This document shows, one piece after another, positions 3,097 through 15,424 of a DNA stretch of 15,759 bases; position 1 is the first letter of the stretch; each line of letters begins with the position of its first letter. Source of the stretch: Nanobdellati archaeon (GTDB lineage Archaea > EX4484-52 > GLR71); contig JAHYJO010000022.1 of the NCBI GenBank assembly GCA_019429125.1, positions 1-15,759 of the forward strand. The letters run 5' to 3'. The translations under genes were made by a program, and so were the position numbers. The notes under the pieces were generated by a model that was given only the letters and a program-made list of their open reading frames with translations, was not told where the DNA came from and searched no databases.

Positions 3097-3954
3097 TTAG
3101 ACATCCAAAGCATTTGAAACTGTTTCTTTAACGCCTAGTTGAGTTACATTAGCTCTTACTTTTTCAAGATTTTTTCTTTGTTCCACAATTGCATTATAGT
3201 CATTTTTACATTCATTAACTAAACTAGCTAATTCCACCATACCAGATCCAGTACCAGAAACCGTATTGAATGCGTTTTGGAGTTGAATTAAGTTCTCTTT
3301 TATGGGATTATCCCTGGATATTCCCTTTATATTTTTTTCTATTTCATCAAGGTTTTTTTTATTCATTTGTGATTTATTTTGACTTCCTGCTGCAAGGATG
3401 TTTAAACCATAGAAAACGATATTATGTAAATGTCCTTCATCCGCTAAAACTTTATTAAGTTCATCATTTACATAGGTCATTTCATTTTTATTAATTTGAT
3501 TTGCGATTTTATTTGCTTTTTGTTCAAATCCCGCAGTATCAGCTCCTTTTTGTCTATTTTTTACCCAACCATATGATGAAAAAAGAATTCCCAAGAATAA
3601 GAATATCAACATAGTTATTAATCCTAAACTCAATAAAGCTCCCATTAAATTAAATGTAACTAAGTTATACATTAAAATTAATGAACCACCTAAACCAATG
3701 CCCCACACTACTTTCGTATTTCCATCGAAAATCTTAAGGACTTCTAAAAATCCACCAATCATCAAAGCAAATGTAATCATGATGATGATACCTTCAAGAG
3801 AATCTAAACCAAAGGGTGTAAGCACACCAACAGAAAGACTTTTTAATGGTGCCAAGACACTACTAATCGAGGTTGCTGCAAAAGCAAATCCTGCAGATAA
3901 GATTAACATCAATGAAAAGCTTATCATCCCCAATAATACATTTTTATTTTTCAT
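3097..3954 (-). CDS. Membrane protein: signal peptide + multi-TM core (G-x7-F variant of the paralog motif) + C-terminal coiled coil
   Basis: GAGGT RBS. MKNKN-hydrophobic-AFA Sec-type signal; core GGFLEVLKIFD; Y-G-W-x-KN after the last TM, as in the two adjacent paralogs. Confidence 0.85.
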   Translation of the reverse strand: MKNKNVLLGMISFSLMLILSAGFAFAATSISSVLAPLKSLSVGVLTPFGLDSLEGIIIMITFALMIGGFLEVLKIFDGNTKVVWGIGLGGSLILMYNLVTFNLMGALLSLGLITMLIFLFLGILFSSYGWVKNRQKGADTAGFEQKANKIANQINKNEMTYVNDELNKVLADEGHLHNIVFYGLNILAAGSQNKSQMNKKNLDEIEKNIKGISRDNPIKENLIQLQNAFNTVSGTGSGMVELASLVNECKNDYNAIVEQRKNLEKVRANVTQLGVKETVSNALDV

Positions 3955-3995
3955 ATTTAAAACCTCTTATTTTATTAATTATTTTTTAACATCAT

Positions 3996-4853
3996 TTATC
4001 GACTTATAATCGCATGTAAATCTTTATGTGCTTCTTTCAGATATCTATCACGGTGACTAATCAATAATTCTATATGTTGTTTTATGACGTTCCTCTTTTC
4101 AGTTAAATTTAAATAGTATTTTCCTGTTTTAATATTATCTATATCATCCTTATAATTGCCATCATCATTAGTAATCAACTTATATATTTGATTATCAATT
4201 TTAGTCAGTTCACCTTTAGCTGAAGATATTTTTGTATCAATTTTTTTTGCAGTATCTTGAGATCGTTTCATACTATCAACATGTATATTCCCTATAGTTA
4301 TATGTTTTTGACCTTCAACATACATATTTTTATAACCCCAACCAATCATTAGGATGAACAAAAAGATATAAAGCAAAAATACAGTTGTTCCTGTCAAAAT
4401 AGACATTAACGATACAAACATGATTCGATATACACCTAAAGGTGCCATGAATAAAGATAAAACAAGTGCTATATATTTTTGTATTTTTGCATCAAAAAGA
4501 TTAACCTCCTTAAGTATTCCTAAAAACATAAGGAATGCTAAAGCAATTGGCATTATTACATAATATAAGAAATTCCCACCACGGAGACCATAACCTTTAC
4601 ACCGTGTATCTGCATCAGTAGATGAGATTTCACTTGCAGAATAAGTTGTGCCGTCTGCTTTTATATTACACACGCCGAATGTATCTAATATTAAGAAATA
4701 GATATCAGTAAATATACCTTCGCCACCAGTAACAATACCACTAACTTGATAATCCGATGGACCTGCTGCAGTAACACTATTACCTGCAAAAAATCCTGCG
4801 AATAAGATACCTAGCATTAATATTAATATCTGTTTTTTTGTTACCATGTTCAT
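3996..4853 (-). CDS. Membrane protein: signal peptide + P-x9-G-x7-F multi-TM core + C-terminal coiled coil
   Basis: ATGA start/stop overlap with the upstream gene at 4850-4853. Clear paralog of 4850..5626 (RGG, APLG-x-YR, LLYIFLF, GYKNM, GNI). A Cys pair flanks a short predicted external loop. Confidence 0.85.
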   Translation of the reverse strand: MNMVTKKQILILMLGILFAGFFAGNSVTAAGPSDYQVSGIVTGGEGIFTDIYFLILDTFGVCNIKADGTTYSASEISSTDADTRCKGYGLRGGNFLYYVIMPIALAFLMFLGILKEVNLFDAKIQKYIALVLSLFMAPLGVYRIMFVSLMSILTGTTVFLLYIFLFILMIGWGYKNMYVEGQKHITIGNIHVDSMKRSQDTAKKIDTKISSAKGELTKIDNQIYKLITNDDGNYKDDIDNIKTGKYYLNLTEKRNVIKQHIELLISHRDRYLKEAHKDLHAIISR

Positions 4854-5626
4854 CTACTTGCACCTATTGTATTCTTTAATCCTTTTATAATTTCTGCATT
4901 TCGGTTCTTTAAATGTTCACACAGAATCTCTCTGTGGTTATCTAAATTTTGTATTTTTAGTGATAACTTATCGTATTTTTTTAGATCATCCTTAGGTGAT
5001 ATTTCTGATTGCTTATTTCTTAAATGAGATAATTGATCTGAGATATCATCAATTTGCCTGATTAATTTTTTTGAACCGTTTTTTGCATCTTTCATATCCT
5101 TAATATAAATATTGCCTGCTGTAAAATCACCTAAACCTATTGAAAACATATTCTTATAACCATAACCTAATATCGCAACAAACAAAAATATGTACAATAA
5201 TGTTGCAGTCCCTGCTGTCATGAACCCAGTGACCATAAAGAAGAAACGCCTGTATAGACCAAGTGGTGCAAGCATCAATGCAAGCAAAAGTGGTATGCCT
5301 TTGTTTATCCAGTCCTCATCAAACAGCCGAAGCTTCATAATGATACCATAAAACATCATAAACGCTAAAAGAATAGGAATAAGTACAAAAGAGAATAGGT
5401 AACCACCACGAATCTGCATATCTTCCATAGGTATCCCAAAGAAGTCGGCAATCAACTGATAAGTCCAGGCAAGTATGCCATTTAAATCAAAATTTAATGA
5501 TGAAGAAGATGAAGAAAACCCAACCTGAGAGGAACCAGGTGTTGATATGTCAAAAGCATAGACTGATGAAGATAACATTAAGAGTACAGCTATAAATGCA
5601 AAAATAAGGATTTGTCTTGTTCTCAT
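4850..5626 (-). CDS. Membrane protein: signal peptide + P-x9-G-x7-F multi-TM core + C-terminal coiled coil
   Basis: ORF track starts at TTG 5638. ATG at 5626 (MRTRQILIF...SVYA) has a GGTG RBS. Ser-rich linker, core IPILLAFMMFYGIIMKLRLFDE and heptad-like C-terminus. Confidence 0.85.
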   Translation of the reverse strand: MRTRQILIFAFIAVLLMLSSSVYAFDISTPGSSQVGFSSSSSSLNFDLNGILAWTYQLIADFFGIPMEDMQIRGGYLFSFVLIPILLAFMMFYGIIMKLRLFDEDWINKGIPLLLALMLAPLGLYRRFFFMVTGFMTAGTATLLYIFLFVAILGYGYKNMFSIGLGDFTAGNIYIKDMKDAKNGSKKLIRQIDDISDQLSHLRNKQSEISPKDDLKKYDKLSLKIQNLDNHREILCEHLKNRNAEIIKGLKNTIGASR

Positions 5627-5655
5627 GTTCAACACCAATAGTTAGGCACCCTGTG

Positions 5656-5670
5656 TTTATATTCTTTTTT
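5656..5670 (-). promoter_or_regulatory. Putative BRE/TATA promoter of the minus-strand membrane-protein operon
   Basis: The minus strand reads AAAAAAGA-ATATAAA about 30 nt upstream of the ATG at 5626. Confidence 0.45.
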
Positions 5671-6027
5671 ATTTTTGATTCAGTTTTTATCAATTATTTA
5701 ACGAATCATGGGGATTTTTGCTACTTGAAATTAATAGAACTATTTGAGTATATATACGTTTCGGTTTTATTTTTTATTGAGAGGGCATTATTTATTTACA
5801 AAAGTTCATGCAGTACAAAAATGATATAAAATAGTATTATAACAGAATAATCCTAATCTTCAACTACCTATTTTGGAGGGATTGCTCTATTTTTGGCAGT
5901 AACTATAAAAACAAGCAGTTAACTTAACTGTTTTATATTATGATTTTTATTCAAATTTAGGTATAATAACTTAATTTGTCTGAATTTAATAATCTAAACA
6001 CCATTTTATATTTAAATATTCTATAAG

Positions 6028-6048
6028 CACTCCAACACCATTGGAGTG
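6028..6048. repeat. 8-bp inverted repeat with 5-nt spacer (CACTCCAA-cacca-TTGGAGTG)
   Basis: Perfect arms read directly from the sequence, followed by TTTT. Confidence 0.7.
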
Positions 6049-6164
6049 TTTTGACAATTTACCCCAATGGCAATGGAGACTTTAGTCAAGATGGTCTTAA
6101 AATTATTGTTAAACCAGTCTGGAAATGGATGCTTGAATGATTTTTCATCAAAACTGTGCATTTC

Positions 6165-6180
6165 GTGCAGTTAACTGCAC
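6165..6180. promoter_or_regulatory. Perfect 16-bp palindrome GTGCAGTTAACTGCAC, candidate operator
   Basis: Self-complementary, about 60 nt upstream of the TATA box at 6240. A related IR, CAGTTAA-C-TTAACTG, lies at 5916-5930. Function is inferred. Confidence 0.55.
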
Positions 6181-6231
6181 AAAAAACATATAAAGTTGTG
6201 CATTTGATGTTCGGACTGAGACCCCATAAAA

Positions 6232-6247
6232 CCGAAACATTTAAATA
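6232..6247 (+). promoter_or_regulatory. Archaeal BRE + TATA promoter (CCGAAA-ca-TTTAAATA)
   Basis: Near-consensus BRE/TATA 38 nt upstream of the ATG at 6285; GGTG RBS at 6276-6279. Confidence 0.7.
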
Positions 6248-6284
6248 TCGTTAATGTTAATAATTATATTAATAAGGTGTTAAT

Positions 6285-6863
6285 ATGAATCTTTATGACT
6301 TGATTGGGAACCTACAGGATGTAGGATTTTATGATATACTGTTGCCCTGGGCATTGTTTTTTGCAATAGTGTATGGACTTTTAACTAAGGTTGGACCGTT
6401 TAGTGGATCTGAACAGAAAAGTATAGTATCTATAATATCGATGGTTGTCGCATTCTTTATAGTTGGGTATACTCCGTTTGGTGCAACATTTGGTGTCTAT
6501 CTTGCCGAACTGTTTGGAAAGAGCGGAACAATACTTGCAGGTCTTCTTGTAGCATCATTATTCTTAGGTATGGCGGGATTAAAATTGCCTGACGGTTTTG
6601 GAAAAGATGATAGTAAAAAGACAATTAATTTTGCGATAATTGTATTATTAATTGTAGGTGTAATATATTTCACAACAGGTTTTGATAACATCATCAATTT
6701 CAGTTCACCAAGCATTGCAGAAGATACAATCGTTACATTGCTTGTGATACTTGCTCTTGCCGGTGGAATATTCATGATGATGAAAGGTAATGGGGAAAAT
6801 AATGGAAATGTTGCCAGTGATAATACAGACAATACCCCAACAAAACCTGCCCAACCACAATAA
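6285..6863 (+). CDS. Small polytopic membrane protein, paralog array copy 1
   Basis: About 5 hydrophobic segments; GFYDILLPWALFFAIVYGLLTKVGPF motif; RBS and promoter present. Confidence 0.9.
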   Translation: MNLYDLIGNLQDVGFYDILLPWALFFAIVYGLLTKVGPFSGSEQKSIVSIISMVVAFFIVGYTPFGATFGVYLAELFGKSGTILAGLLVASLFLGMAGLKLPDGFGKDDSKKTINFAIIVLLIVGVIYFTTGFDNIINFSSPSIAEDTIVTLLVILALAGGIFMMMKGNGENNGNVASDNTDNTPTKPAQPQ

Positions 6864-6889
6864 CTTAAAAGATAAAACGGTGATAATGA

Positions 6890-7408
6890 ATGAACCTATA
6901 TGATCTTATTGGGAACCTGAAAGATGTCGGATTTTATGACATACTACTGCCTTGGGCACTGTTTTTTGCCATGATATATGGTCTTCTGACAACTGTCGGA
7001 CCTTTCAAGACTAAAGCTGAAGAGGATGGTAAAGAAGATACACCACCGGGAATACCTGCAATGATTTCCATGGTTATCGCATTTTTTATAATCACATACA
7101 CGCCGTTCGGGCTCAATTTAGGTTCATATCTTGCAACTATTTTCGGACAAAGCGGTACAATTCTTGTCGGACTTTTGGTCATCCTAATATTTTTAGGTAT
7201 GGCTGGAATCAATATGGAAAATGAGACATTTAAAGATCATAAAACAAAAATTGCGTTCGCACTGATTGCAATTGTTGCAGTAATATATATAAGCACAAGT
7301 AATCTGTTGAGTTGGATTAACATACCAGGAATAAGTGAAGAGACAATTGCAACATTACTTATGCTTGCTGTAATTATAGGTGGAGTCGTTTGGCTCACTA
7401 AAAAATAA
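6890..7408 (+). CDS. Small polytopic membrane protein, paralog array copy 2
   Basis: N-terminus nearly identical in protein to copy 1; GGTGA RBS. Confidence 0.9.
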   Translation: MNLYDLIGNLKDVGFYDILLPWALFFAMIYGLLTTVGPFKTKAEEDGKEDTPPGIPAMISMVIAFFIITYTPFGLNLGSYLATIFGQSGTILVGLLVILIFLGMAGINMENETFKDHKTKIAFALIAIVAVIYISTSNLLSWINIPGISEETIATLLMLAVIIGGVVWLTKK

Positions 7409-7421
7409 GAGATGAATAATT

Positions 7422-7952
7422 ATGGTAGGGATGGAAGTACTCATAGGCAATATGAACACTATCGGGTTCTATGACTTTTTCCTACCATTTATATTATTTG
7501 TTGCAATCATATTCGGACTTCTGCAGAAAAATAAGGTTTTCGGAGAAACAGACACGAAAGGAATTGATGGTGTTGTCGCCATGAGTGTGTCGTTTTTTGT
7601 TATAAATTACACAGCAATAGGACTATATTTCTCTACACTTTTTGCAATAGGTGCAACTATAATCGGTGCAATACTTGTAGGGGTAATAATCTTAGGTATG
7701 GTAGGTATTGACATTGGAGGATTATTAGATGAAGAGAACAACAAGAAAATGAGATTGCCAATAGTTGCTGCCACAGGAGTTGTAGTCATTATCCTTTTCC
7801 TTTTTGCCAGCGGACTTTATGAAAAGCTTAGTGATTTCATACCACCAATTGGAGAAGATACGATTGTCACAATTGTTGCAGTATTATTCTTTATTGTGGT
7901 CTTTATGATGATTACAGGAACAGGTAAAAAGAATGGTGGCTCAGGCAACTGA
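7422..7952 (+). CDS. Small polytopic membrane protein, paralog array copy 3
   Basis: GFYDFFLPFILFVAIIFGLLQKNKVF motif; EDTIVT shared with copy 1. Confidence 0.9.
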   Translation: MVGMEVLIGNMNTIGFYDFFLPFILFVAIIFGLLQKNKVFGETDTKGIDGVVAMSVSFFVINYTAIGLYFSTLFAIGATIIGAILVGVIILGMVGIDIGGLLDEENNKKMRLPIVAATGVVVIILFLFASGLYEKLSDFIPPIGEDTIVTIVAVLFFIVVFMMITGTGKKNGGSGN

Positions 7953-7988
7953 ATAACAATATAGATATCAAATGATTATGTGATATAG

Positions 7989-8468
7989 ATGACATTTTAT
8001 TTCAGTACGCTTTTAGGGAACTTGAATGAAGTAGGGTTCTATGACTTTTTCTTACCTTTTGTGCTGTTTACAACTCTTACTTATGCACTCTTTCGAAAAA
8101 TCAAGCTGTTTGATGAAGGAGTGGCACTTGATGCTATGTTTGCAATGAGTATAGGGTTTTTCATTATAAATTACAGCACACTTGGGATCTATCTATCACA
8201 TCTTTTCTCAGTTGCAGGAGTGTTTATTGCACTTCTTGTCGCAATTGTGTTGATTACTGCAACACTTGGTGTTGACTTGCCAACATATATGTCAGAACAG
8301 CAGGGGACTGCTATTGCATTAGTCGTATTAATCGCAGTGTTTGTACTTCTTGAATCAGATATCGGGAATTTTTTAGGAAATATAGACGGAATTATTATAA
8401 AAGTAATAATACTTATCACAGTACTTATCGCAATGATGACACTTATGGCAAAAAAGGTAGTCACCTAA
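7989..8468 (+). CDS. Small polytopic membrane protein, paralog array copy 4
   Basis: GFYDFFLPFVLFTTLTYALFRKIKLFDE motif; closest to copy 3; GTGA RBS. Confidence 0.9.
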   Translation: MTFYFSTLLGNLNEVGFYDFFLPFVLFTTLTYALFRKIKLFDEGVALDAMFAMSIGFFIINYSTLGIYLSHLFSVAGVFIALLVAIVLITATLGVDLPTYMSEQQGTAIALVVLIAVFVLLESDIGNFLGNIDGIIIKVIILITVLIAMMTLMAKKVVT

Positions 8469-8504
8469 ATAATATAACTATAAAAAATAATGCCAGCATT
8501 AAGT

Positions 8505-9458
8505 CTAGAATGAATCTTTCTCTATAGAGTTAACATTAACAGTTTTATCTATTTTTGGTTCAGGAGCACTGCCAATATTTTTTTCAACATCAGATACGTC
8601 GTCTGAGTCAATACCCCCAGACATACCCAATTCAATAGAATCTGTATTTATCTTTTCAGAATGTATGTGTAGCTTGTCATTTACCTGAGAAATAGCATCA
8701 ACAAGGTTTGGGACCACATCTTTGAATGCGCGCTCAATGCTTGATACTTTAGGGCTCACTTCTGAAAAGTCATCACGCAAAATATCCATCTCCTTTTTTA
8801 TATCAGATACTCTGCTCTCAGTCCTTGTCTCAACTGATTTTAGAGAGGTATCTAAGTTATCAATCTCACCACGAATATCAACAATTGATGCATTAATATT
8901 ATCTATCAGAATCTTAAATGATGCTAACCGCTCTTCCACAATTGATTCAATCATAGCTTCTAGATTATCAGTTCTTGTTACATCTGTCTGGTTCTGCATC
9001 TGCTGGGAAAAATCAGATGATACATCTTGAAACGTAGCATCAAGGGATTGTGGTTGTTCAGCAACCATACCAGGTATAATGTTTGATAAGTTATCTCCTG
9101 AAACCCGCGACTTTATTGCCTGACCAAGCGCATTGTCTATCTCTTTGAAATTGTAACCTTTGTTTTTAAGCGCTTGGACCATCTCGGACTCAGGCATGCC
9201 TTTTGAAGCAAATTTGCTTATATCTGCCATTATGTTTAAAGAGGGAGACGAGGCTGGCTGAAATGAAGACATCTGTTGTATAGGAGCAATAGAAGGTAAT
9301 GAATTGTCTGAATATGACATTTGAGGAGGTAATGAAGATATGTTATCTTGCATAGAGTCTAATCCCGAATCAGACGATGCGTGAAATCCTTGTCCACCAG
9401 AGGTACTTACGCCTGACTTTTTTTTCAGATTGCCGAATAATTCAAATTTAAGTCCCAT
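8505..9458 (-). CDS. Cytoplasmic coiled-coil protein with low-complexity N-terminus and a small helical L-x2-KGY-x3-EI-x2-A module
   Basis: ORF track starts at TTG 9476. ATG at 9458 has a GAGGT RBS overlapping the upstream stop. Long heptad region from LEAMIESIVEER to VNDKL; no TM. Confidence 0.85.
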   Translation of the reverse strand: MGLKFELFGNLKKKSGVSTSGGQGFHASSDSGLDSMQDNISSLPPQMSYSDNSLPSIAPIQQMSSFQPASSPSLNIMADISKFASKGMPESEMVQALKNKGYNFKEIDNALGQAIKSRVSGDNLSNIIPGMVAEQPQSLDATFQDVSSDFSQQMQNQTDVTRTDNLEAMIESIVEERLASFKILIDNINASIVDIRGEIDNLDTSLKSVETRTESRVSDIKKEMDILRDDFSEVSPKVSSIERAFKDVVPNLVDAISQVNDKLHIHSEKINTDSIELGMSGGIDSDDVSDVEKNIGSAPEPKIDKTVNVNSIEKDSF

Positions 9459-9468
9459 AACAATTACC

Positions 9469-9849
9469 TCATTCAATCATACTTGTATTTTTACTTTTAC
9501 TCATACGGTTCGTTATTGATTTCATTAACTCCACATATTCCTGCATCTCGCGCAATTCCTGTCGTGTCACTAAGTTTTTTAAACGCGCATTTATCTTCTG
9601 GACGTCAACTGAAATGTTTGACACCTTGTCTGACAATTCGGTATTGTCTTCTGTTATGTGCTGAACTGACTGGTTCATCTCTTTTGTCGCATCCATTATG
9701 GTCTGTTCCATACTGTTAACTCTAGAGTCTAAGTTTTCAAGCTCATCCTCAATAAGACGGATACGGCGAGTATTATCATTAAGACGACGGGAAAGTTCAC
9801 CTATCAGAGGTGTGGTATCTACCTTTGGTGGAGGATTGTTGAAAACCAT
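9469..9849 (-). CDS. Small coiled-coil protein
   Basis: ORF track starts at TTG 9867. ATG at 9849 has GTGA upstream. Almost wholly heptad (LSRRLNDNTRRIRLIEDELENLDSRV). Confidence 0.85.
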   Translation of the reverse strand: MVFNNPPPKVDTTPLIGELSRRLNDNTRRIRLIEDELENLDSRVNSMEQTIMDATKEMNQSVQHITEDNTELSDKVSNISVDVQKINARLKNLVTRQELREMQEYVELMKSITNRMSKSKNTSMIE

Positions 9850-9875
9850 AGTATCACTAAATATCAAAAAATACG

Positions 9876-9885
9876 ATATATATAT
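9876..9885. promoter_or_regulatory. Palindromic ATATATATAT, candidate bidirectional TATA box
   Basis: Centred about 32 nt from ATG 9849 (-) and about 33 nt from ATG 9914 (+) in a 64-bp divergent spacer. Confidence 0.55.
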
Positions 9886-9913
9886 TTAATAGGTAGCTAC
9901 CCATATATAAATT

Positions 9914-12184
9914 ATGGTAGTCTGCAACTATGAATATGACAATGAGAACAATACTGTCAAGGTAAATTGCCTAAACTGCATATATGGATCATCTATTGAG
10001 GATTTTCCAATATGTATGGCGCGAACTATCGATAAGTTAGTAGAGTCAAAGAATGCAGCACGAGTAATATTGATGCAGACACGAGAATTCGAGTATGACA
10101 TGTACCAGACTCATCTCCTCAAACAGATTGCAAGCACTATAATATACCTGGTAAAACAGCAAAGGATACTTTCTATGGCAAACATCTCAACACCAGGGTG
10201 TGAGTCTTGCATACCACAGAGAACTGAATTCTTGCATCAACTTCTGACCACAGACATAAGAGAGGACCCAATAGGAACATATGTCAAAGTTAACAGAGAA
10301 ATCAGGCACACATATGAGAGGATGAAAATCGCAAATGAGATTTGGAAGACATGCTACCAGAATTATATAGATAATGTGCTCGGGAAAATAAAGTCAGCAC
10401 TTGAAGCTACAGAACTTATACACTTAGTCAAGACACGGCTCATAGGTCATGTTGACGGTGACAGGTCACTTTACAGAGAAATGTTCCACCCTATGATTAA
10501 ACCTAATTTCATGCTGACACGGTATATGCTTATACCACCTAAGAATGGGAAAAAGATAGATAGATATATGGTGGGTGCCAGTGAAGTCCAGATATTTAAG
10601 GTAGAAGACAAGTTGCAGAAAATATACCACATCATACCACCAGAATTTAGGCTGGGCGAGGAAGAGTACACAATCCTTGATGCAGCAAGAAGGTACATGG
10701 CTGCACACAAACCTACAAAGACAGAATTTGCTGACCCACAAAGGATGAGAGATATATTTTCTGATATAGGTCGTGACCTTATCTCCGAACTTGCAGACCA
10801 TGCAAACATAACGCTAACCACAAAGACACTTAACACGCTTGCAGACATCCTTACAAGATACACTGCAGGATACGGTGTTCTTGAAGTAATATTAGGCGAT
10901 GAGAATGTGCAGGACATATACCTTAATGCACCTATGGGTGACTCACCAATTTACCTATATCACGGAGACTATGAGGAATGCATAACAAACATTATACCTA
11001 CCAAAGAAGATGCAAATGCATGGGCTACAAGGTTCAGGATTGAATCGGGTAGACCACTGGATCAGGCAAATCCTGTCCTTGATACTGAAATTGTTTTGCC
11101 GAGCGGGCGAGCAAGAGTTGCGGCAATTACAAGGTCACTCAGCCCGGACGGGCTATCATTTGTGCTAAGACGACATAGAGACAAACCATGGACATATCCG
11201 CTTTTCATACAGTACAACATGATGACACCGCTCTCTGCAGGACTTCTATCATTTATGATAGACGGTGCGCGAACCATGATGTTTGCAGGCACAAGATCGG
11301 CAGGAAAGAGCAGTCTTTTAGGTGGGACACTTACTGAACTTATGAAAAAGGTAAGGATTATAACAGTTGAAGATACTCTTGAACTCCCAGTCAAGGCACT
11401 CAAAGACCTAGGGTATGACATCCAGTCATTGAAATCACGGTCAATCATTACTCATGTTGAATCTGAACTGTCGGCGGATGAGGCCATAAGGACATCTCTG
11501 CGTCTTGGAGACTCATCGTTGATAGTGGGTGAAGTAAGGTCTGTTGAAGCGAAGGCGCTTTATGAATCTATGCGTATCGGTGCACTTGCTAACCTTGTTG
11601 CAGGAACAATCCATGGTGATTCACCGTATGGTGTGTTTGATAGGGTGGTAAATGACCTTGGTGTGCCACCCACGTCGTTTAAGGCGACTGACATAATCAC
11701 TATTGTCAATAGGTTGAAAAGCGCTGACGGTCTCAAGACCTATCGTCGTATTATGGAGATTACGGAAGTCACAAAAGACTGGGATGATAACCCACAGAAA
11801 GAGCATGCTTTCCAGCCACTTATGATGTATGACTCTAAAACCGATCGGCTTGAACCCACTGACCGGTTCCTGAACGGTGAGAGCTATATACTGAATCAGA
11901 TTGCTGACCGTGTCAAGGACTGGAAGAACAACTGGGATGCAGTCTGGGAAAATATTCAGCTCAGGACAAAAATGAAAGAGGCACTGGTTCGGTATGCGCG
12001 CGATACCAATGATTTTTCTATACTTGAAGCTGATTTTACGACTATGGCAAACAGCAGGTTCCACCTGATATCTGAGGAAGTCAAAGAACAGTATGGTTCG
12101 CTTGATCCTGAAAGGATATATGGGCGTTGGGATGAATGGATTAAAAGAAAGATAAAAGAAAAACAAAGGCTGATGAAAGGTTGA
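9914..12184 (+). CDS. Archaeal type II/IV secretion system ATPase (VirB11/TadA/FlaI family) with Cys-rich N-terminal extension
   Basis: Walker A GTRSAGKS (11288-11311), Asp box TVEDTLEL, Walker B LIVGEVR, His box GTIHGDS, and GYGVLEVILGDENVQDIYLN typical of the family. Confidence 0.95.
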   Translation: MVVCNYEYDNENNTVKVNCLNCIYGSSIEDFPICMARTIDKLVESKNAARVILMQTREFEYDMYQTHLLKQIASTIIYLVKQQRILSMANISTPGCESCIPQRTEFLHQLLTTDIREDPIGTYVKVNREIRHTYERMKIANEIWKTCYQNYIDNVLGKIKSALEATELIHLVKTRLIGHVDGDRSLYREMFHPMIKPNFMLTRYMLIPPKNGKKIDRYMVGASEVQIFKVEDKLQKIYHIIPPEFRLGEEEYTILDAARRYMAAHKPTKTEFADPQRMRDIFSDIGRDLISELADHANITLTTKTLNTLADILTRYTAGYGVLEVILGDENVQDIYLNAPMGDSPIYLYHGDYEECITNIIPTKEDANAWATRFRIESGRPLDQANPVLDTEIVLPSGRARVAAITRSLSPDGLSFVLRRHRDKPWTYPLFIQYNMMTPLSAGLLSFMIDGARTMMFAGTRSAGKSSLLGGTLTELMKKVRIITVEDTLELPVKALKDLGYDIQSLKSRSIITHVESELSADEAIRTSLRLGDSSLIVGEVRSVEAKALYESMRIGALANLVAGTIHGDSPYGVFDRVVNDLGVPPTSFKATDIITIVNRLKSADGLKTYRRIMEITEVTKDWDDNPQKEHAFQPLMMYDSKTDRLEPTDRFLNGESYILNQIADRVKDWKNNWDAVWENIQLRTKMKEALVRYARDTNDFSILEADFTTMANSRFHLISEEVKEQYGSLDPERIYGRWDEWIKRKIKEKQRLMKG

Positions 12185-12186
12185 TT

Positions 12187-13280
12187 TAGTCTAATTCATA
12201 AACTGTTACTTTGCCATAGATAGTAAATACGATAAATACTTAGAAACTATATACACATTAAAAACTAAATATATAGTATGAAAAATATACCTTTTACCTC
12301 TGAAAATATTATTGATGCAATCAATAATGAACCTGATACATTTGCAAAAAAGAAGCTTCAATCAAGGGTATTGATTAAAGAAAATAATGCACCAATAACT
12401 GTTGCAAATAAACTTTCTGTAAGTTTAGCTACTGTTTATAATTGGATTAGTCAAATTAATTCTTAAGGTCTTAAAAATTTAAAAATCAAGAAAGGTAAAG
12501 GTCTAAAATCATTATTAACTAAAGAATAGTTAATTGAATTAAAATCAGATATAGAAATTCCAATAAAAACTGATGATGGTTATAATCGTGGTTGTCAAAC
12601 CAAAGATGTGTACAAACACATCTTAACAAAATATGTACTAAAATATTCGTTAAGACGAATACAAGAAATTCTTAATATAATGGGATTTAAAAAAATCGTA
12701 TGCAGACCACGAAGTACGCGTAGAAATGAGGCGTTAACTCAAGAATTTTTGATAACAGTTAAAAAAAAGAAATTTAGGGGGTGAAGAATACAAACTATTT
12801 TGTCATGATGAATGTTTAAAAAAATTAGAAATAGATAAAGCATGAGTTTGGGCAAAAATAGGTTCAAAACCAATAAAATACATATCGTGAACTCAAACTA
12901 AAATTAATATAGGTGGGTTTTATACTGAAAATAATACATTTTATCATTATGATTTAGGAGAAAAACAAAACACGATTTCATTTATAGACTCTTTAAAAAA
13001 ATTCAAAAAAGACATAAACCACAAAGTATTTTTAATAATTGACAAAGCACGTTTTCATACATCTAAAGATGCTAAAGAATACTTAGATGTAAATAAGGAT
13101 TAGTTAGAATATGAATATTTTTTAACAGCGTCACCTGATAAAAATCCAGTAGAATTTTGTTGGAAAAGAATAAGATAAGAATTATTACAACTTTATTCAT
13201 TCTCTAAAAAAACAGAGTTGTTGAGTAGTTTAAGTAAATTATGGGTTTTACAAAGCCAAAGTCAAATAATTTATATATAG
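12187..13280 (+). mobile_element. Degenerate IS630-family insertion sequence (boundaries approximate)
   Basis: AT-rich insert between two higher-GC genes containing a transposase pseudogene. Ends show only weak IR similarity (ATAAA...ACTTTG), with TA/TAG at both putative ends. Confidence 0.8.
12278..13280 (+). pseudogene. IS630 transposase pseudogene
   Basis: HTH (VANKLSVSLATVYNW), second HTH region (YSLRRIQEILNIMGF), frame change at the A8G run 12761-12769, then DDE motifs FCHDE, VWAKIGSKP, LIIDKARFH and SPDKNPVE. Premature stops at 12464, 12527, 12843, 12888, 13101 and 13176. Confidence 0.9.
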
Positions 13281-13312
13281 AAGCCACAGACAAATCAAAT
13301 AAGGCACATACT

Positions 13313-15424
13313 ATGAAATCAAATATTTCTGAAAAAGAAAAAGAACATTTTGCAGAAATAGAGAAAGCTCTAGAACAATATAACAAGGATATGGTAAACC
13401 CTATAGATTTTACATCAGAAACAAGTACAATATCGCGCGCATTCAAGGAATATAAAGAAGATGAGTCAAACCAGAAACTTGCAGGCACGTTCTATGAGAA
13501 GATGTGCGCACTGTCTGAAAAAATGTTCAAGATAGACCTCGACAAGAAAAGTAAGGATGCAATCAACATTGCTATTGATTTTACAGCTCTCAAAATTACA
13601 CCTGAAGGCGTTGCAGGATTCTCTGTCATGGCACTTCTTTTCTTCTTAGTCCTTGGTGTATTAACACTTTTTATACCACCGTTTATTGCACCAAATCTTA
13701 TCAAAATAATGATGTTTGCAATGGGTCCTATAACTGCTCTGTACATATTCAAATACCCAAATAACATGGCAACTAGTGTCAGAATTAAAAGTTCGGGAGA
13801 GCTTGTCATGGTTGTACTTTACATGATAGTCTACATGAAGACTACACCTAACCTTGAAGGTGCAGTACGGTTTGCAGCACAGAGCGCTACTGGTAAAGTC
13901 GGACGTGACCTGACTAGGATGTTATGGAGACTTGAGAATGGTGAGATACAGACTATTGACGAAGGCCTTATGGAATATGTAGTCCAATGGAAAAATTATA
14001 ACCGTGAATTTATGGATTCTATTGAATTTATTAGGGCTTCCATGCGCGAGACAAATCTGGCTCGTCGTGAAAATATGTTGGACAAGTCGGTCAACATGAT
14101 TCTTGAAGGCACAAATGAAAAAATGAAACATTACAGCCGTGAACTGCAGATGCCAATTACGGTAATACATGGACTTGGTATACTTTTGCCTATTATGGGA
14201 ATGATAATATTTCCTTTAGCATCTATCTTTCTGGGTGACTCGATACCGTATCTTGTCACGTATCTTATTTTTGGGTATGATATACTTATACCATTAGTAG
14301 TCTATGTGTTTATGAAAAATATACTTGACCGAAGACCTTCTACAAAGACTGTTGTTGACATATCTAATCATCCTGATGCCATGCCACTCAATAAGATGCG
14401 AATAGGTAAAACAATCGTACCTGTCTGGCCATTTGCACTCATCTCAGGAGGGATAATAGTATTTATAGGCATACTGATGCTTATCACATTCTATAATGTT
14501 GACAACACACTCATAGAAAATCCAATACAACGTTTAATCGTATCAAACCTATTCCATAGCCTGATTATTATAATAGGTATTGCAGTCGGGCTTATTGTGT
14601 ATTATTGGGGGACTAGCTTTCAGAAGATTAAGATTATTAAAGAGATACAAAAGATTGAGGAACAGTTTGAGTCTGCGCTTTTTGCATTAGGTAACCGTCT
14701 TGCAGGCGGGATGCCACTTGAACTGTCTCTCGCCAAGGCGAATGATGACACTAAAGACCTTGAAATATCAGGACTTTTGAGAGGGACAGTAAAAAACATG
14801 AGTCAGCTGAATATGACATTCCATCAGGCACTTTTTGATAAAAAATATGGTTCACTTTTTTATTACCCATCCAAATTGATACATACCATAATGCAGGCCA
14901 TAAGTGAGGCGGTTGACAAAGGAACAAAGGCAACATCTATGACTATGCTTGTTATTTCTGAATACTTGCGCAATATCAGAACCACACAGGAAAAGATTGA
15001 TGATATACTTTCTGAGACATCAAGCTCTATGAAATTTCAGGCATATGTATTAGTTCCTATGATATCAGGTGTTGTAGTATCGACATCACAGATTATCATG
15101 ACTATGATGTTCAAGATTGATTCAAGTATGAAGGATCTTGATGCTGCATCACTTGCAGGTTCAAATCCAATGGGGATGATGATTGATCTTGAATCGGCGA
15201 CACAGCCATGGATATTGCAGCTTTTGGTCGGTATCTATGTCATTGAGATACTTATTCTTCTTTCAATGTTTGTGATAAAGATTACAGACGGTGATGATAA
15301 AATAAAACAGAATGACCTCATCTGGCATGTAATAATCATCGGCATAATCATGTATGTAATTGTCCTTGCAATGGTGAGTGTAATCTTCGGTGGGTTGATA
15401 AGCACTGCGATGCAAGTTATGTGA
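13313..15424 (+). CDS. Type IV pilus/T2SS-F family membrane platform protein (TadB/TadC, FlaJ-like, two T2SSF repeats)
   Basis: Downstream of the ATPase; about 9 TM segments and two cytoplasmic T2SSF-like domains (LYMIVYMKTTPNLEGAVRFA; FESALFALGNRLAGGMPLELSL). The track start at 13241 lies inside the IS end, so ATG 13313 is preferred. Confidence 0.9.
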   Translation: MKSNISEKEKEHFAEIEKALEQYNKDMVNPIDFTSETSTISRAFKEYKEDESNQKLAGTFYEKMCALSEKMFKIDLDKKSKDAINIAIDFTALKITPEGVAGFSVMALLFFLVLGVLTLFIPPFIAPNLIKIMMFAMGPITALYIFKYPNNMATSVRIKSSGELVMVVLYMIVYMKTTPNLEGAVRFAAQSATGKVGRDLTRMLWRLENGEIQTIDEGLMEYVVQWKNYNREFMDSIEFIRASMRETNLARRENMLDKSVNMILEGTNEKMKHYSRELQMPITVIHGLGILLPIMGMIIFPLASIFLGDSIPYLVTYLIFGYDILIPLVVYVFMKNILDRRPSTKTVVDISNHPDAMPLNKMRIGKTIVPVWPFALISGGIIVFIGILMLITFYNVDNTLIENPIQRLIVSNLFHSLIIIIGIAVGLIVYYWGTSFQKIKIIKEIQKIEEQFESALFALGNRLAGGMPLELSLAKANDDTKDLEISGLLRGTVKNMSQLNMTFHQALFDKKYGSLFYYPSKLIHTIMQAISEAVDKGTKATSMTMLVISEYLRNIRTTQEKIDDILSETSSSMKFQAYVLVPMISGVVVSTSQIIMTMMFKIDSSMKDLDAASLAGSNPMGMMIDLESATQPWILQLLVGIYVIEILILLSMFVIKITDGDDKIKQNDLIWHVIIIGIIMYVIVLAMVSVIFGGLISTAMQVM

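Follow-up and report, generated by a model that had tools for sequence, protein, structure and literature searches.

Here we describe a five-family gene module of DPANN archaea in a 15.8-kb stretch of DNA, hereafter the window, which is the entire contig C7 of a DPANN genome of 1.16 Mb (34% G+C, 32 contigs). The module consists of a secretion ATPase and its membrane platform, two soluble coiled-coil proteins designated ccK and ccL, and a tandem array of polytopic membrane proteins designated fam1. It is a conserved unit, in which an accessory set is arranged around a type IV filament (T4F) motor. On balance, the locus is probably the core T4F assembly machine of these archaea, acting on substrates encoded in trans and equipped with three undescribed partner families.

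DPANN archaea depend on physical contact with a host, and the machinery for this contact is poorly defined. In the most reduced genomes the motor considered here has no other T2SSE ATPase beside it, and the three families that travel with it are nameless in Pfam and NCBIfam. Being near-universal in three DPANN phyla and having these unnamed partners, the module is a good experimental target. We name its five genes as targets for the few cultured DPANN co-cultures, and profiles of the module could be added to system-detection tools.

Conservation of the module and of the peptidase

The N-terminal domain of the ATPase, which is specific to its clade, was surveyed in three DPANN phyla: in 42 genomes of the window's group, in 201 genomes, at least 70% complete, of a phylum reached through a complete Woesearchaeota genome, and in 101 genomes of a third phylum. 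The domain was found in 41 of the 42, the sole miss being a gene cut by a contig end, and in 198 of 201 and 100 of 101 genomes of the other two phyla, where it is nearly always present in single copy (339/344 in total). Full-length orthologues with 55-94% identity to the window ATPase were present in 41/41 genomes of the window's group. The partner families are almost as widespread. Among 71 genomes of the Woesearchaeota-containing phylum that are at least 85% complete, fam1 was found in 69, usually in two or three tandem copies, while ccK (70/71) and ccL (68/71) are mostly represented by one copy each. Judged from the coordinates, as we read them, fam1 and the ATPase are no more than 12 kb apart in 40 of these 71 genomes.

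The gene order fam1(xN)-ccK-ccL-ATPase-platform recurs in all three phyla. A set of 54 neighbourhoods was seeded on fam1 in species-representative genomes, these loci not being mutually independent. The ATPase is present in 35 of the 54, and thus in 35 of the 45 loci where at least 3 kb of sequence extends past the array; of the 19 loci without it, nine end less than 3 kb past the array and ten are truly without a nearby ATPase. The only families common to more than 10 of the 54 loci were fam1 itself, ccK (37), the ATPase (35), ccL (28) and the platform (27). The arrangement is not invariant. In many genomes the module is split (for example G058, G085, G095 and G106), with ccK beside fam1 and ccL beside the ATPase, a pattern which hints at which partner binds which; in G104, also split, ccL stands beside ccK and fam1 too, on contig C11. 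In the complete genome G045 the parts of the module are hundreds of kb apart.

The second line of evidence comes from the A24 peptidase, which was found in 197 of the 201 genomes of the Woesearchaeota-containing phylum. In 18 of the 71 genomes there is one T2SSE match only, which coincides with the N-domain match in 17, and the peptidase is retained in all 18. The simplest explanation for a class III peptidase retained alongside only one T4F motor is that its substrates are handled by that motor. One of the 18, the 661-kb genome G101 (5 contigs), was examined as a whole and encodes a single ATPase and a single platform together with ccL, ccK and three fam1 proteins, with no canonical TadC-like protein anywhere in the genome.

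The window's own genome is richer in such systems. It has two A24 peptidase matches, on contigs C15 (over the cut-off) and C25, and four further T2SSE ATPase loci (L097, L098, L099 and L100, on contigs C16, C25, C14 and C32, respectively). The loci on C16, C25 and C32 each encode two TadC-like proteins and canonical class III pilins. The C16 and C32 pilins have archaellin-like N-ends (G-x-S/T-P-L/I-I-A), with archaellin family matches on both contigs, and the C25 pilin has a Flp-like N-end (G-Q-S-A-T-E-Y). The C14 locus has a small, 381-aa ATPase and two short TadB/C-like genes. Furthermore, orphan small proteins with class III-like N-ends are encoded on contigs C4, C12 and C17.

These results bear directly on a first-pass annotation of the window, which had noted that no gene there carries a class III (prepilin peptidase) signal and that archaellin, ArlH/FlaH and peptidase genes are missing. 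Both observations hold. Our regular-expression scan detected no class III signal at any true N-terminus in the window, the same scan having recovered canonical pilins in two other loci of the genome as positive controls, and no window protein matched an archaellin, KaiC-like ArlH, ArlF/G or A24 peptidase family in Pfam or NCBIfam. Its expectation that the accessory genes would co-localise with this ATPase clade was also borne out across DPANN, in the 35 of 45 assessable fam1 loci given above. The conclusion drawn from the missing pilin, that the membrane paralogs may themselves form a filament, ring or channel, is weakened and is not the best reading of the locus: peptidases, three pilin loci and orphan pilin-like genes lie elsewhere in the genome, the peptidase is just as widespread as the motor, and the 18 of 71 genomes in which this motor is the sole one keep it. 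The annotation had also named what would speak for an ordinary pilus system, namely pilins and a peptidase outside the window and accessory genes belonging to described components. The former are indeed present elsewhere in the genome; the accessory families, however, match no component described in Pfam or NCBIfam above the cut-off. With its ATPase, platform and peptidase, three of the four defining features, the locus is classed here as a T4F assembly system; for the fourth, a cognate pilin, candidates are encoded elsewhere in G000 and G101. Since defining features of an archaellum were looked for and found missing, it is not classed as one.

Module contigs were also encountered in records with non-DPANN titles (L045, L052, L063, L071, L083, L086 and L092), which name Campylobacterales, Bathyarchaeota, Methanosarcinales, Euryarchaeota or Patescibacteria. 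Four genomes with such titles, 0.9-1.5 Mb in size, were checked; a DPANN-type ATPase was found in three of them (behind L063, L071 and L083), and the N-domain search gave no match in the fourth, G250 (behind L052). The titles look like mislabels or the result of mis-binning.

Components of the locus

The contig is filled by 14 open reading frames (ORFs), among which all genes named in the first-pass annotation were recovered at the same coordinates. Three genes of a second membrane family, fam2, on the minus strand are followed by four fam1 genes on the plus strand, ccK and ccL on the minus strand, the ATPase on the plus strand, a spacer and the platform on the plus strand:

3097..3954, minus strand: fam2 paralogue, 285 aa, more divergent than the other two (family comparison, hydropathy)
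3996..4853, minus strand: fam2 paralogue, 285 aa, with a sub-threshold ArlX match (Pfam, family comparison, hydropathy)
4850..5638, minus strand: fam2 paralogue, 262 aa (family and profile comparison, hydropathy)
6285..6863, plus strand: fam1 paralogue 1, 192 aa, five transmembrane (TM) segments (paralogue alignment, hydropathy)
6890..7408, plus strand: fam1 paralogue 2, 172 aa (alignment, hydropathy; structure model with pLDDT 71.9, all helical)
7422..7952, plus strand: fam1 paralogue 3, 176 aa (alignment, hydropathy)
7989..8468, plus strand: fam1 paralogue 4, 159 aa (alignment)
8505..9476, minus strand: ccK, cytoplasmic, 323 aa, overlapping ccL by 8 nt
9469..9867, minus strand: ccL, cytoplasmic coiled-coil protein, 132 aa, divergent from the ATPase gene across a 46-bp spacer
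9914..12184, plus strand: secretion ATPase of the FlaI/TadA/VirB11 family, 756 aa (Pfam T2SSE, intact motifs)
12185..13240, no strand: AT-rich non-coding spacer of 1,056 bp (GC 0.28) between the ATPase and platform genes
13241..15424, plus strand: platform of T2SSF/TadC/FlaJ type, 727 aa (T2SSF matches of orthologues, profile comparison)

The first-pass annotation had recognised a secretion ATPase with a T2SSF platform and, beside them, two soluble coiled-coil genes; both identifications stand. The ATPase matches Pfam T2SSE (E=1.2e-11), and its best solved relatives are the A. fulgidus GspE 2oap (1.4e-22), CpaF (8e-19) and FlaI (4e-14). A script-based check found the catalytic motifs intact, with Walker A at residue 459, the Asp box at 485, Walker B at 536 and the His box at 565. 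Its best NCBIfam model is FlaI (NF058587), at 116.9 bits against a cut-off of 550; on this model it scores lowest of the genome's five T2SSE ATPases, the four paralogs reaching 227-403 bits. The clade-specific region comprises the N-terminal ~290 aa and has a confidently predicted fold (pLDDT 83.9). No Pfam family was matched at E<=0.01 by any of 28 N-domains scanned, Foldseek gave no match to the model at E<=0.001, and the protein atlas returned only leads below 0.9. The helical parts of Dicer were considered as a structural relative and set aside, the best VIA-align result (Z 7.1, rmsd 3.1, 97 aligned residues) lying in a range common for helical models. The window ATPase has six cysteines within its first 98 residues, and a cysteine-rich N-end is present in the window and its phylum but is not conserved across the DPANN clade; the idea of a conserved metal site was dropped because the cysteines are unconserved beyond some lineages.

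Inteins interrupt many orthologues of the ATPase. In two of these the insert follows immediately on the catalytic Asp box, at residue 487 in the numbering of the window ATPase; its last residues are HN, and the next residue is T. Pfam intein or homing-endonuclease domains occur in 7 of 120 listed relatives of the ATPase, and frames longer than 1,200 aa make up 8 of the 150 matches listed in the Woesearchaeota-containing phylum and 11 of the 103 listed in the third phylum.

The platform is very divergent and was identified through its family; its gene adjoins that of the ATPase in 27 of the 54 fam1-seeded loci. The window protein alone matches T2SSF below threshold (E=0.0026, 18.1 bits vs a cut-off of 25.2), while 7 of 26 orthologues match this model, the best at 2e-6, and the family profile compared with the genome's canonical TadC-like proteins gave a probability of 95.3% (E=2.1e-8). 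By hydropathy it has eight TM segments and two large cytoplasmic domains rich in lysine and arginine (K/R), and it is therefore read as a two-repeat type. In this it would resemble FlaJ and PilC, which we take to be two-repeat platforms as well. A different arrangement was seen in one family of the window's phylum: on contig C23 of G014, two platform paralogs (L014:7478-9700 and L014:12118-14253), 40% and 30% identical to the window platform, flank the ATPase, and ccK, ccL or fam1 do not adjoin this locus.

Between fam1 and the motor stand ccK and ccL, which overlap or abut in most loci. Neither has a TM segment by hydropathy. Profile scans matched generic coiled-coil families only, and comparison with solved chains returned mostly trimeric coiled coils. 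ccK combines a short basic N-terminal motif and a small helical domain, which is conserved, with a P/Q/S linker of low complexity and a C-terminal coiled coil, likewise conserved. ccK of the window gave a sub-threshold match to FlaC_arch (E=1.8e-5); assignment to this family was rejected because only one of 28 orthologues matches, and that one below the cut-off.

The seven hydrophobic proteins of the window fall into two families. The four tandem fam1 proteins (159-192 aa) are 31-58% identical to the first and share a conserved N-terminal tail and first helix with invariant G, D, P and L, as well as five hydropathy helices; the distribution of K/R places the N-tail outside and the C-end inside in the predicted topology. 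Searches for relatives of known function gave little. Foldseek returned nothing at E<=0.001 for the fam1 model (pLDDT 71.9); the export-gate proteins of type III secretion systems came up as fold relatives at E 0.6-3 with TM-scores of ~0.2, which are meaningless values. The profile matched a single permease stretch among solved chains (E=0.004) and unnamed archaeal clusters only in the protein atlas (0.92). Among 1.84 billion proteins it found 2,185 cluster representatives at E<=0.001, and none of the relatives looked up is given a functional family name by any source. No Pfam or NCBIfam model is matched above its cut-off by fam1, ccK or ccL; the ATPase and, more faintly, the platform were the only window proteins to which these libraries gave a name.

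Each of the three fam2 proteins combines an N-terminal signal-like helix with three TM helices and a K/R-rich tail of 105-156 aa; in two of them an exposed stretch of 61-73 aa follows the first helix. In the protein encoded at 4850-5638 the exposed stretch has 61 aa and the cytoplasmic tail 105 aa, and the three TM helices are related to the core of fam1. Weak Pfam matches to coiled-coil families suggest that the tail is a coiled coil. The protein encoded at 3996-4853 matches ArlX below threshold over its TM and tail part (E=0.0037, 17.2 bits vs a cut-off of 28.7). Among the loci examined, fam2 was seen only in the window's genus.

Direct profile comparison of fam1 and fam2 is weak (46% and 22% probability). 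A link between them is provided by an eighth paralogue (251 aa), whose gene lies at the beginning of contig C17 of the same genome, G000 (L101:1714-2469). It has the N-end and five-TM core of fam1 together with a 94-aa K/R-rich cytoplasmic tail, which is read as a coiled coil, and there are matches both to the fam1 model (E=5e-14) and to the fam2 profile (91.7% probability). Synteny with contig C43 of the sister genome G006 makes it probable that the start of C17 adjoins the left end of C7. The description of the membrane proteins as seven related paralogs in the first-pass annotation is thus defensible through the C17 protein, although they form two families of weak direct similarity and the true count in the genome is eight.

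Interpretation, competing explanations and described systems

In the assembly machine that we favour, a hexamer of the ATPase would act on the platform and lift peptidase-processed class III proteins, encoded elsewhere, out of the membrane, to be assembled as a pilus, or as an array anchored at the cell surface, with which the archaea would make contact with hosts or surfaces. The remainder of the basal body would be built by fam1, ccK and ccL. A cytoplasmic scaffold role of the coiled-coil proteins is plausible, with ccL on the side of the ATPase and ccK on the side of the membrane paralogs, and the 2-6 tandem fam1 proteins may surround the platform as a collar in the membrane or as a docking site. 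By analogy, the accessory set would functionally resemble ArlX/ArlCDE or the bacterial PilM/N/O proteins. The fam2 and C17 proteins may represent the same combination of membrane core and coiled coil in a single chain, to which fam2 would add its exposed stretch; the joining of the two parts in one chain fits a working unit of fam1 plus coiled coil. A bolder version of this scheme, which we think unlikely, makes the module a near-essential envelope machine of at least three DPANN phyla in which a T4F motor is coupled through ccL and ccK to a hetero-oligomeric five-TM collar; such a basal body would be of a new architecture and may be an apparatus for symbiont-host contact or exchange, not a simple adhesive pilus.

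Several observations weigh against an assembly machine with trans-encoded substrates. A pilin gene was found in none of the 54 fam1-seeded loci, and searches of five single-ATPase genomes for the pilin families PF07790 and PF04021 gave no match in any of them (PF04021 was searched at E<=0.05, with a control that matched Methanocaldococcus jannaschii). The candidate substrates in G101, five proteins encoded away from the module which share a basic leader, G/A and then a hydrophobic N-end starting Q-L/V-T, were picked out by a home-made regular expression, are 316-790 aa long, carry no family name and are tied to the motor solely through its being the only ATPase. The ATPase, single-copy and with identities of 55-94% within the phylum and 40-50% across phyla, is more conserved than we would expect of a pilus ATPase, this being our own expectation. 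Many of its orthologues carry inteins (L093:4140-7955, L089:12690-16535 and L079:13235-17047), so that the gene is a repeated intein host. Given its score of only 117 bits on the FlaI model, against 227-403 for its four paralogs, the enzyme could have left its ancestral job. Also, the contact of fam1, ccK and ccL with the motor is itself a prediction.

Several of these observations speak for a T4F-derived motor that has ceased to build a pilin filament. The motor would then drive or gate a hetero-oligomeric ring, channel or non-canonical fibre of fam1 and fam2 for host attachment or exchange, with the coiled-coil proteins as scaffold. Besides the absence of pilins from the loci and of Pfam pilin families from the single-ATPase genomes, this explanation draws on a fam1 that is near-universal, always multi-copy in tandem and without a clear fold or family relative, and on an ATPase that is strongly conserved, single-copy and an outlier among its paralogs. 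Nevertheless we consider it improbable. A peptidase as universal as the motor and kept in 18/18 single-ATPase genomes is hard to explain without class III substrates, and G101, with its one ATPase, does encode class III-like proteins. Furthermore, fam1 is polytopic, with an N-tail predicted to lie outside, the opposite of a pilin, and pilin-less loci that use pilins encoded in trans are established (PMC4858521; here and below, statements refer to the available parts of the cited texts). Equally doubtful, in our view, is that two neighbouring systems have been taken for one, the ATPase and platform, possibly with ccL, being an ordinary pilus motor, and fam1 and ccK an unrelated membrane or cytoskeletal module, for instance in envelope shaping or division, with a divergent promoter region shared in many lineages. 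The split of fam1 and ccK from ccL, ATPase and platform in many genomes (G058, G085, G095, G104, G106), the ten of 45 assessable fam1 loci with no ATPase nearby and the dispersed parts in G045 would all follow from this. However, in most loci ccK and ccL are overlapping or directly adjoining genes, and they lie between fam1 and the ATPase; the arrangement is kept over three phyla in streamlined genomes whose other neighbours are unconserved; and all five families share the same near-universal pattern.

The least probable explanation, to which we attach very little weight, is a reduced archaellum-like rotary motor in which the coiled-coil proteins replace ArlCDE/ArlX and the membrane paralogs are stators. 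It could appeal to the sub-threshold matches of ccK to FlaC_arch (E=1.8e-5) and of a fam2 protein to ArlX (E=0.0037), and to FlaI being the best NCBIfam model of the ATPase. That score is 117 bits against a cut-off of 550, the lowest of the genome's five ATPases, FlaC_arch is matched by only 1/28 ccK orthologues, and ArlH, ArlF/G and archaellin are absent from the window and from the families common to more than 10 of the 54 loci. There is nonetheless a general likeness to the archaellum, in which ArlX (in Crenarchaeota) or ArlC/D/E (in Euryarchaeota) form the motor scaffold around ArlI/ArlJ: both have a FlaI-family ATPase, a FlaJ-type platform and coiled-coil accessories. The layout of ArlX is presumably a TM part plus a cytoplasmic coiled coil, and fam2 and the C17 protein share it. 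The differences are that the similarity to ArlX and FlaC_arch is sub-threshold and of coiled-coil type only, that the ATPase falls far below the FlaI equivalog cut-off (116.9 vs 550 bits), and that the window has no matches to ArlH, ArlF/G or archaellin. We know of no archaellum counterpart of the five-TM fam1 family. Bacterial systems offer a further analogy, since the membrane-anchored coiled-coil proteins PilM/PilN/PilO of the T4aP alignment subcomplex and GspL/GspM of the T2SS tie a cytoplasmic ATPase to its platform. No homology of these proteins to the module was detected, and PilN/O and GspL/M are bitopic whereas fam1 has five helices.

A direct precedent for an assembly machine with trans-encoded substrates is the PilB3-PilC3 system of Haloferax volcanii, an ATPase/TadC module for PilA pilins, which has a motor of the same family. 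Its locus and that of the Halobacterium orthologue encode no pilin and yet are needed for the pili formed by trans-encoded pilins (PMC4858521); as in the window, an ATPase-platform pair stands in a pilin-less locus, with substrates and peptidase elsewhere. Pfam PilB3_N, however, was matched by 0/28 N-domains, the corresponding lead in the protein atlas was low-scoring (0.79), and the available description of the PilB3 locus makes no mention of fam1, ccK or ccL (PMC4858521).

Two censuses provide the wider context. In that of 2016 (Makarova, Koonin and Albers; PMC4858521), nanoarchaea are the only DPANN covered, and in that of 2026 (Sivabalasarma and Albers; PMC13705601), the identity of the DPANN systems is ambiguous for most genomes. 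For these ambiguous ATPase/platform pairs, the module provides a concrete, testable object. Subclade 4F includes nanoarchaeal members whose cognate pilins were not found (PMC4858521, PMC13705601), and its loci encode an intracellular coiled-coil protein and variable N-terminal cysteine-rich domains (PMC4858521). By description, the window may resemble 4F in the cysteine-rich N-end of its ATPase and in its two coiled-coil neighbours. It differs in that these cysteines are unconserved across the DPANN clade and that none of the families conserved around the module corresponds to the CetZ, CBS or adhesin neighbours of 4F. The locus is possibly a DPANN branch of 4F, again by description (arCOG07564 is the coiled-coil reference there).

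System 1, which comprises the Epd pili of methanogens and Thermococcales and is reported in Nanobdellati too (PMC13705601), has a deep-branching, divergent ATPase clade, mostly stand-alone pilins and extra membrane proteins in its loci (PMC4858521). The module is similar in these respects, with a divergent ATPase, candidate substrates encoded elsewhere and extra membrane proteins. By definition, System 1 has two platform genes, whereas most loci of the module have one, of 727 aa in the window, and two were seen only in G014; the Epd-type PF04021 signal was present in 0/5 single-ATPase genomes. Elsewhere in the window's genome, paired TadC genes do occur in loci with Flp-like or archaellin-like pilins.

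No published description of fam1, ccK or ccL was found in a literature scope that included PMC6393860, PMC5898192 and PMC9258230, in the parts of these papers available; the supplementary tables of the censuses, which possibly list these loci or arCOGs, lie outside this scope. The available texts of the 2016 and 2026 censuses (PMC4858521, PMC13705601) do not mention the tandem five-TM family or the ccK/ccL pair.

The spacer and the left end of the contig

In other families of the window's phylum the ATPase and platform genes abut or overlap, and in the sister genomes G001 and G005 their junction holds an insert of 3.3-3.6 kb, which in G001 carries an Lrp/AsnC regulator and five unnamed genes. 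The AT-rich spacer at 12185-13240 is likely the scar of an insertion. Its two short ORFs, with sub-threshold matches to helix-turn-helix families (HTH_22, E=0.0025; HTH_33, E=3.6e-5), are possibly remnants of a transposase.

To the left of the fam2 genes, at 282-2871, are three minus-strand genes for proteins of 171, 148 and 515 aa without any family match. The 171-aa protein has a single N-terminal hydrophobic helix, and the 515-aa protein is enriched in K, D, E and N. Only in sister genomes (L043, L044) do the first and third genes have relatives at the same position, and this group may therefore be a genus-level extension of the locus.

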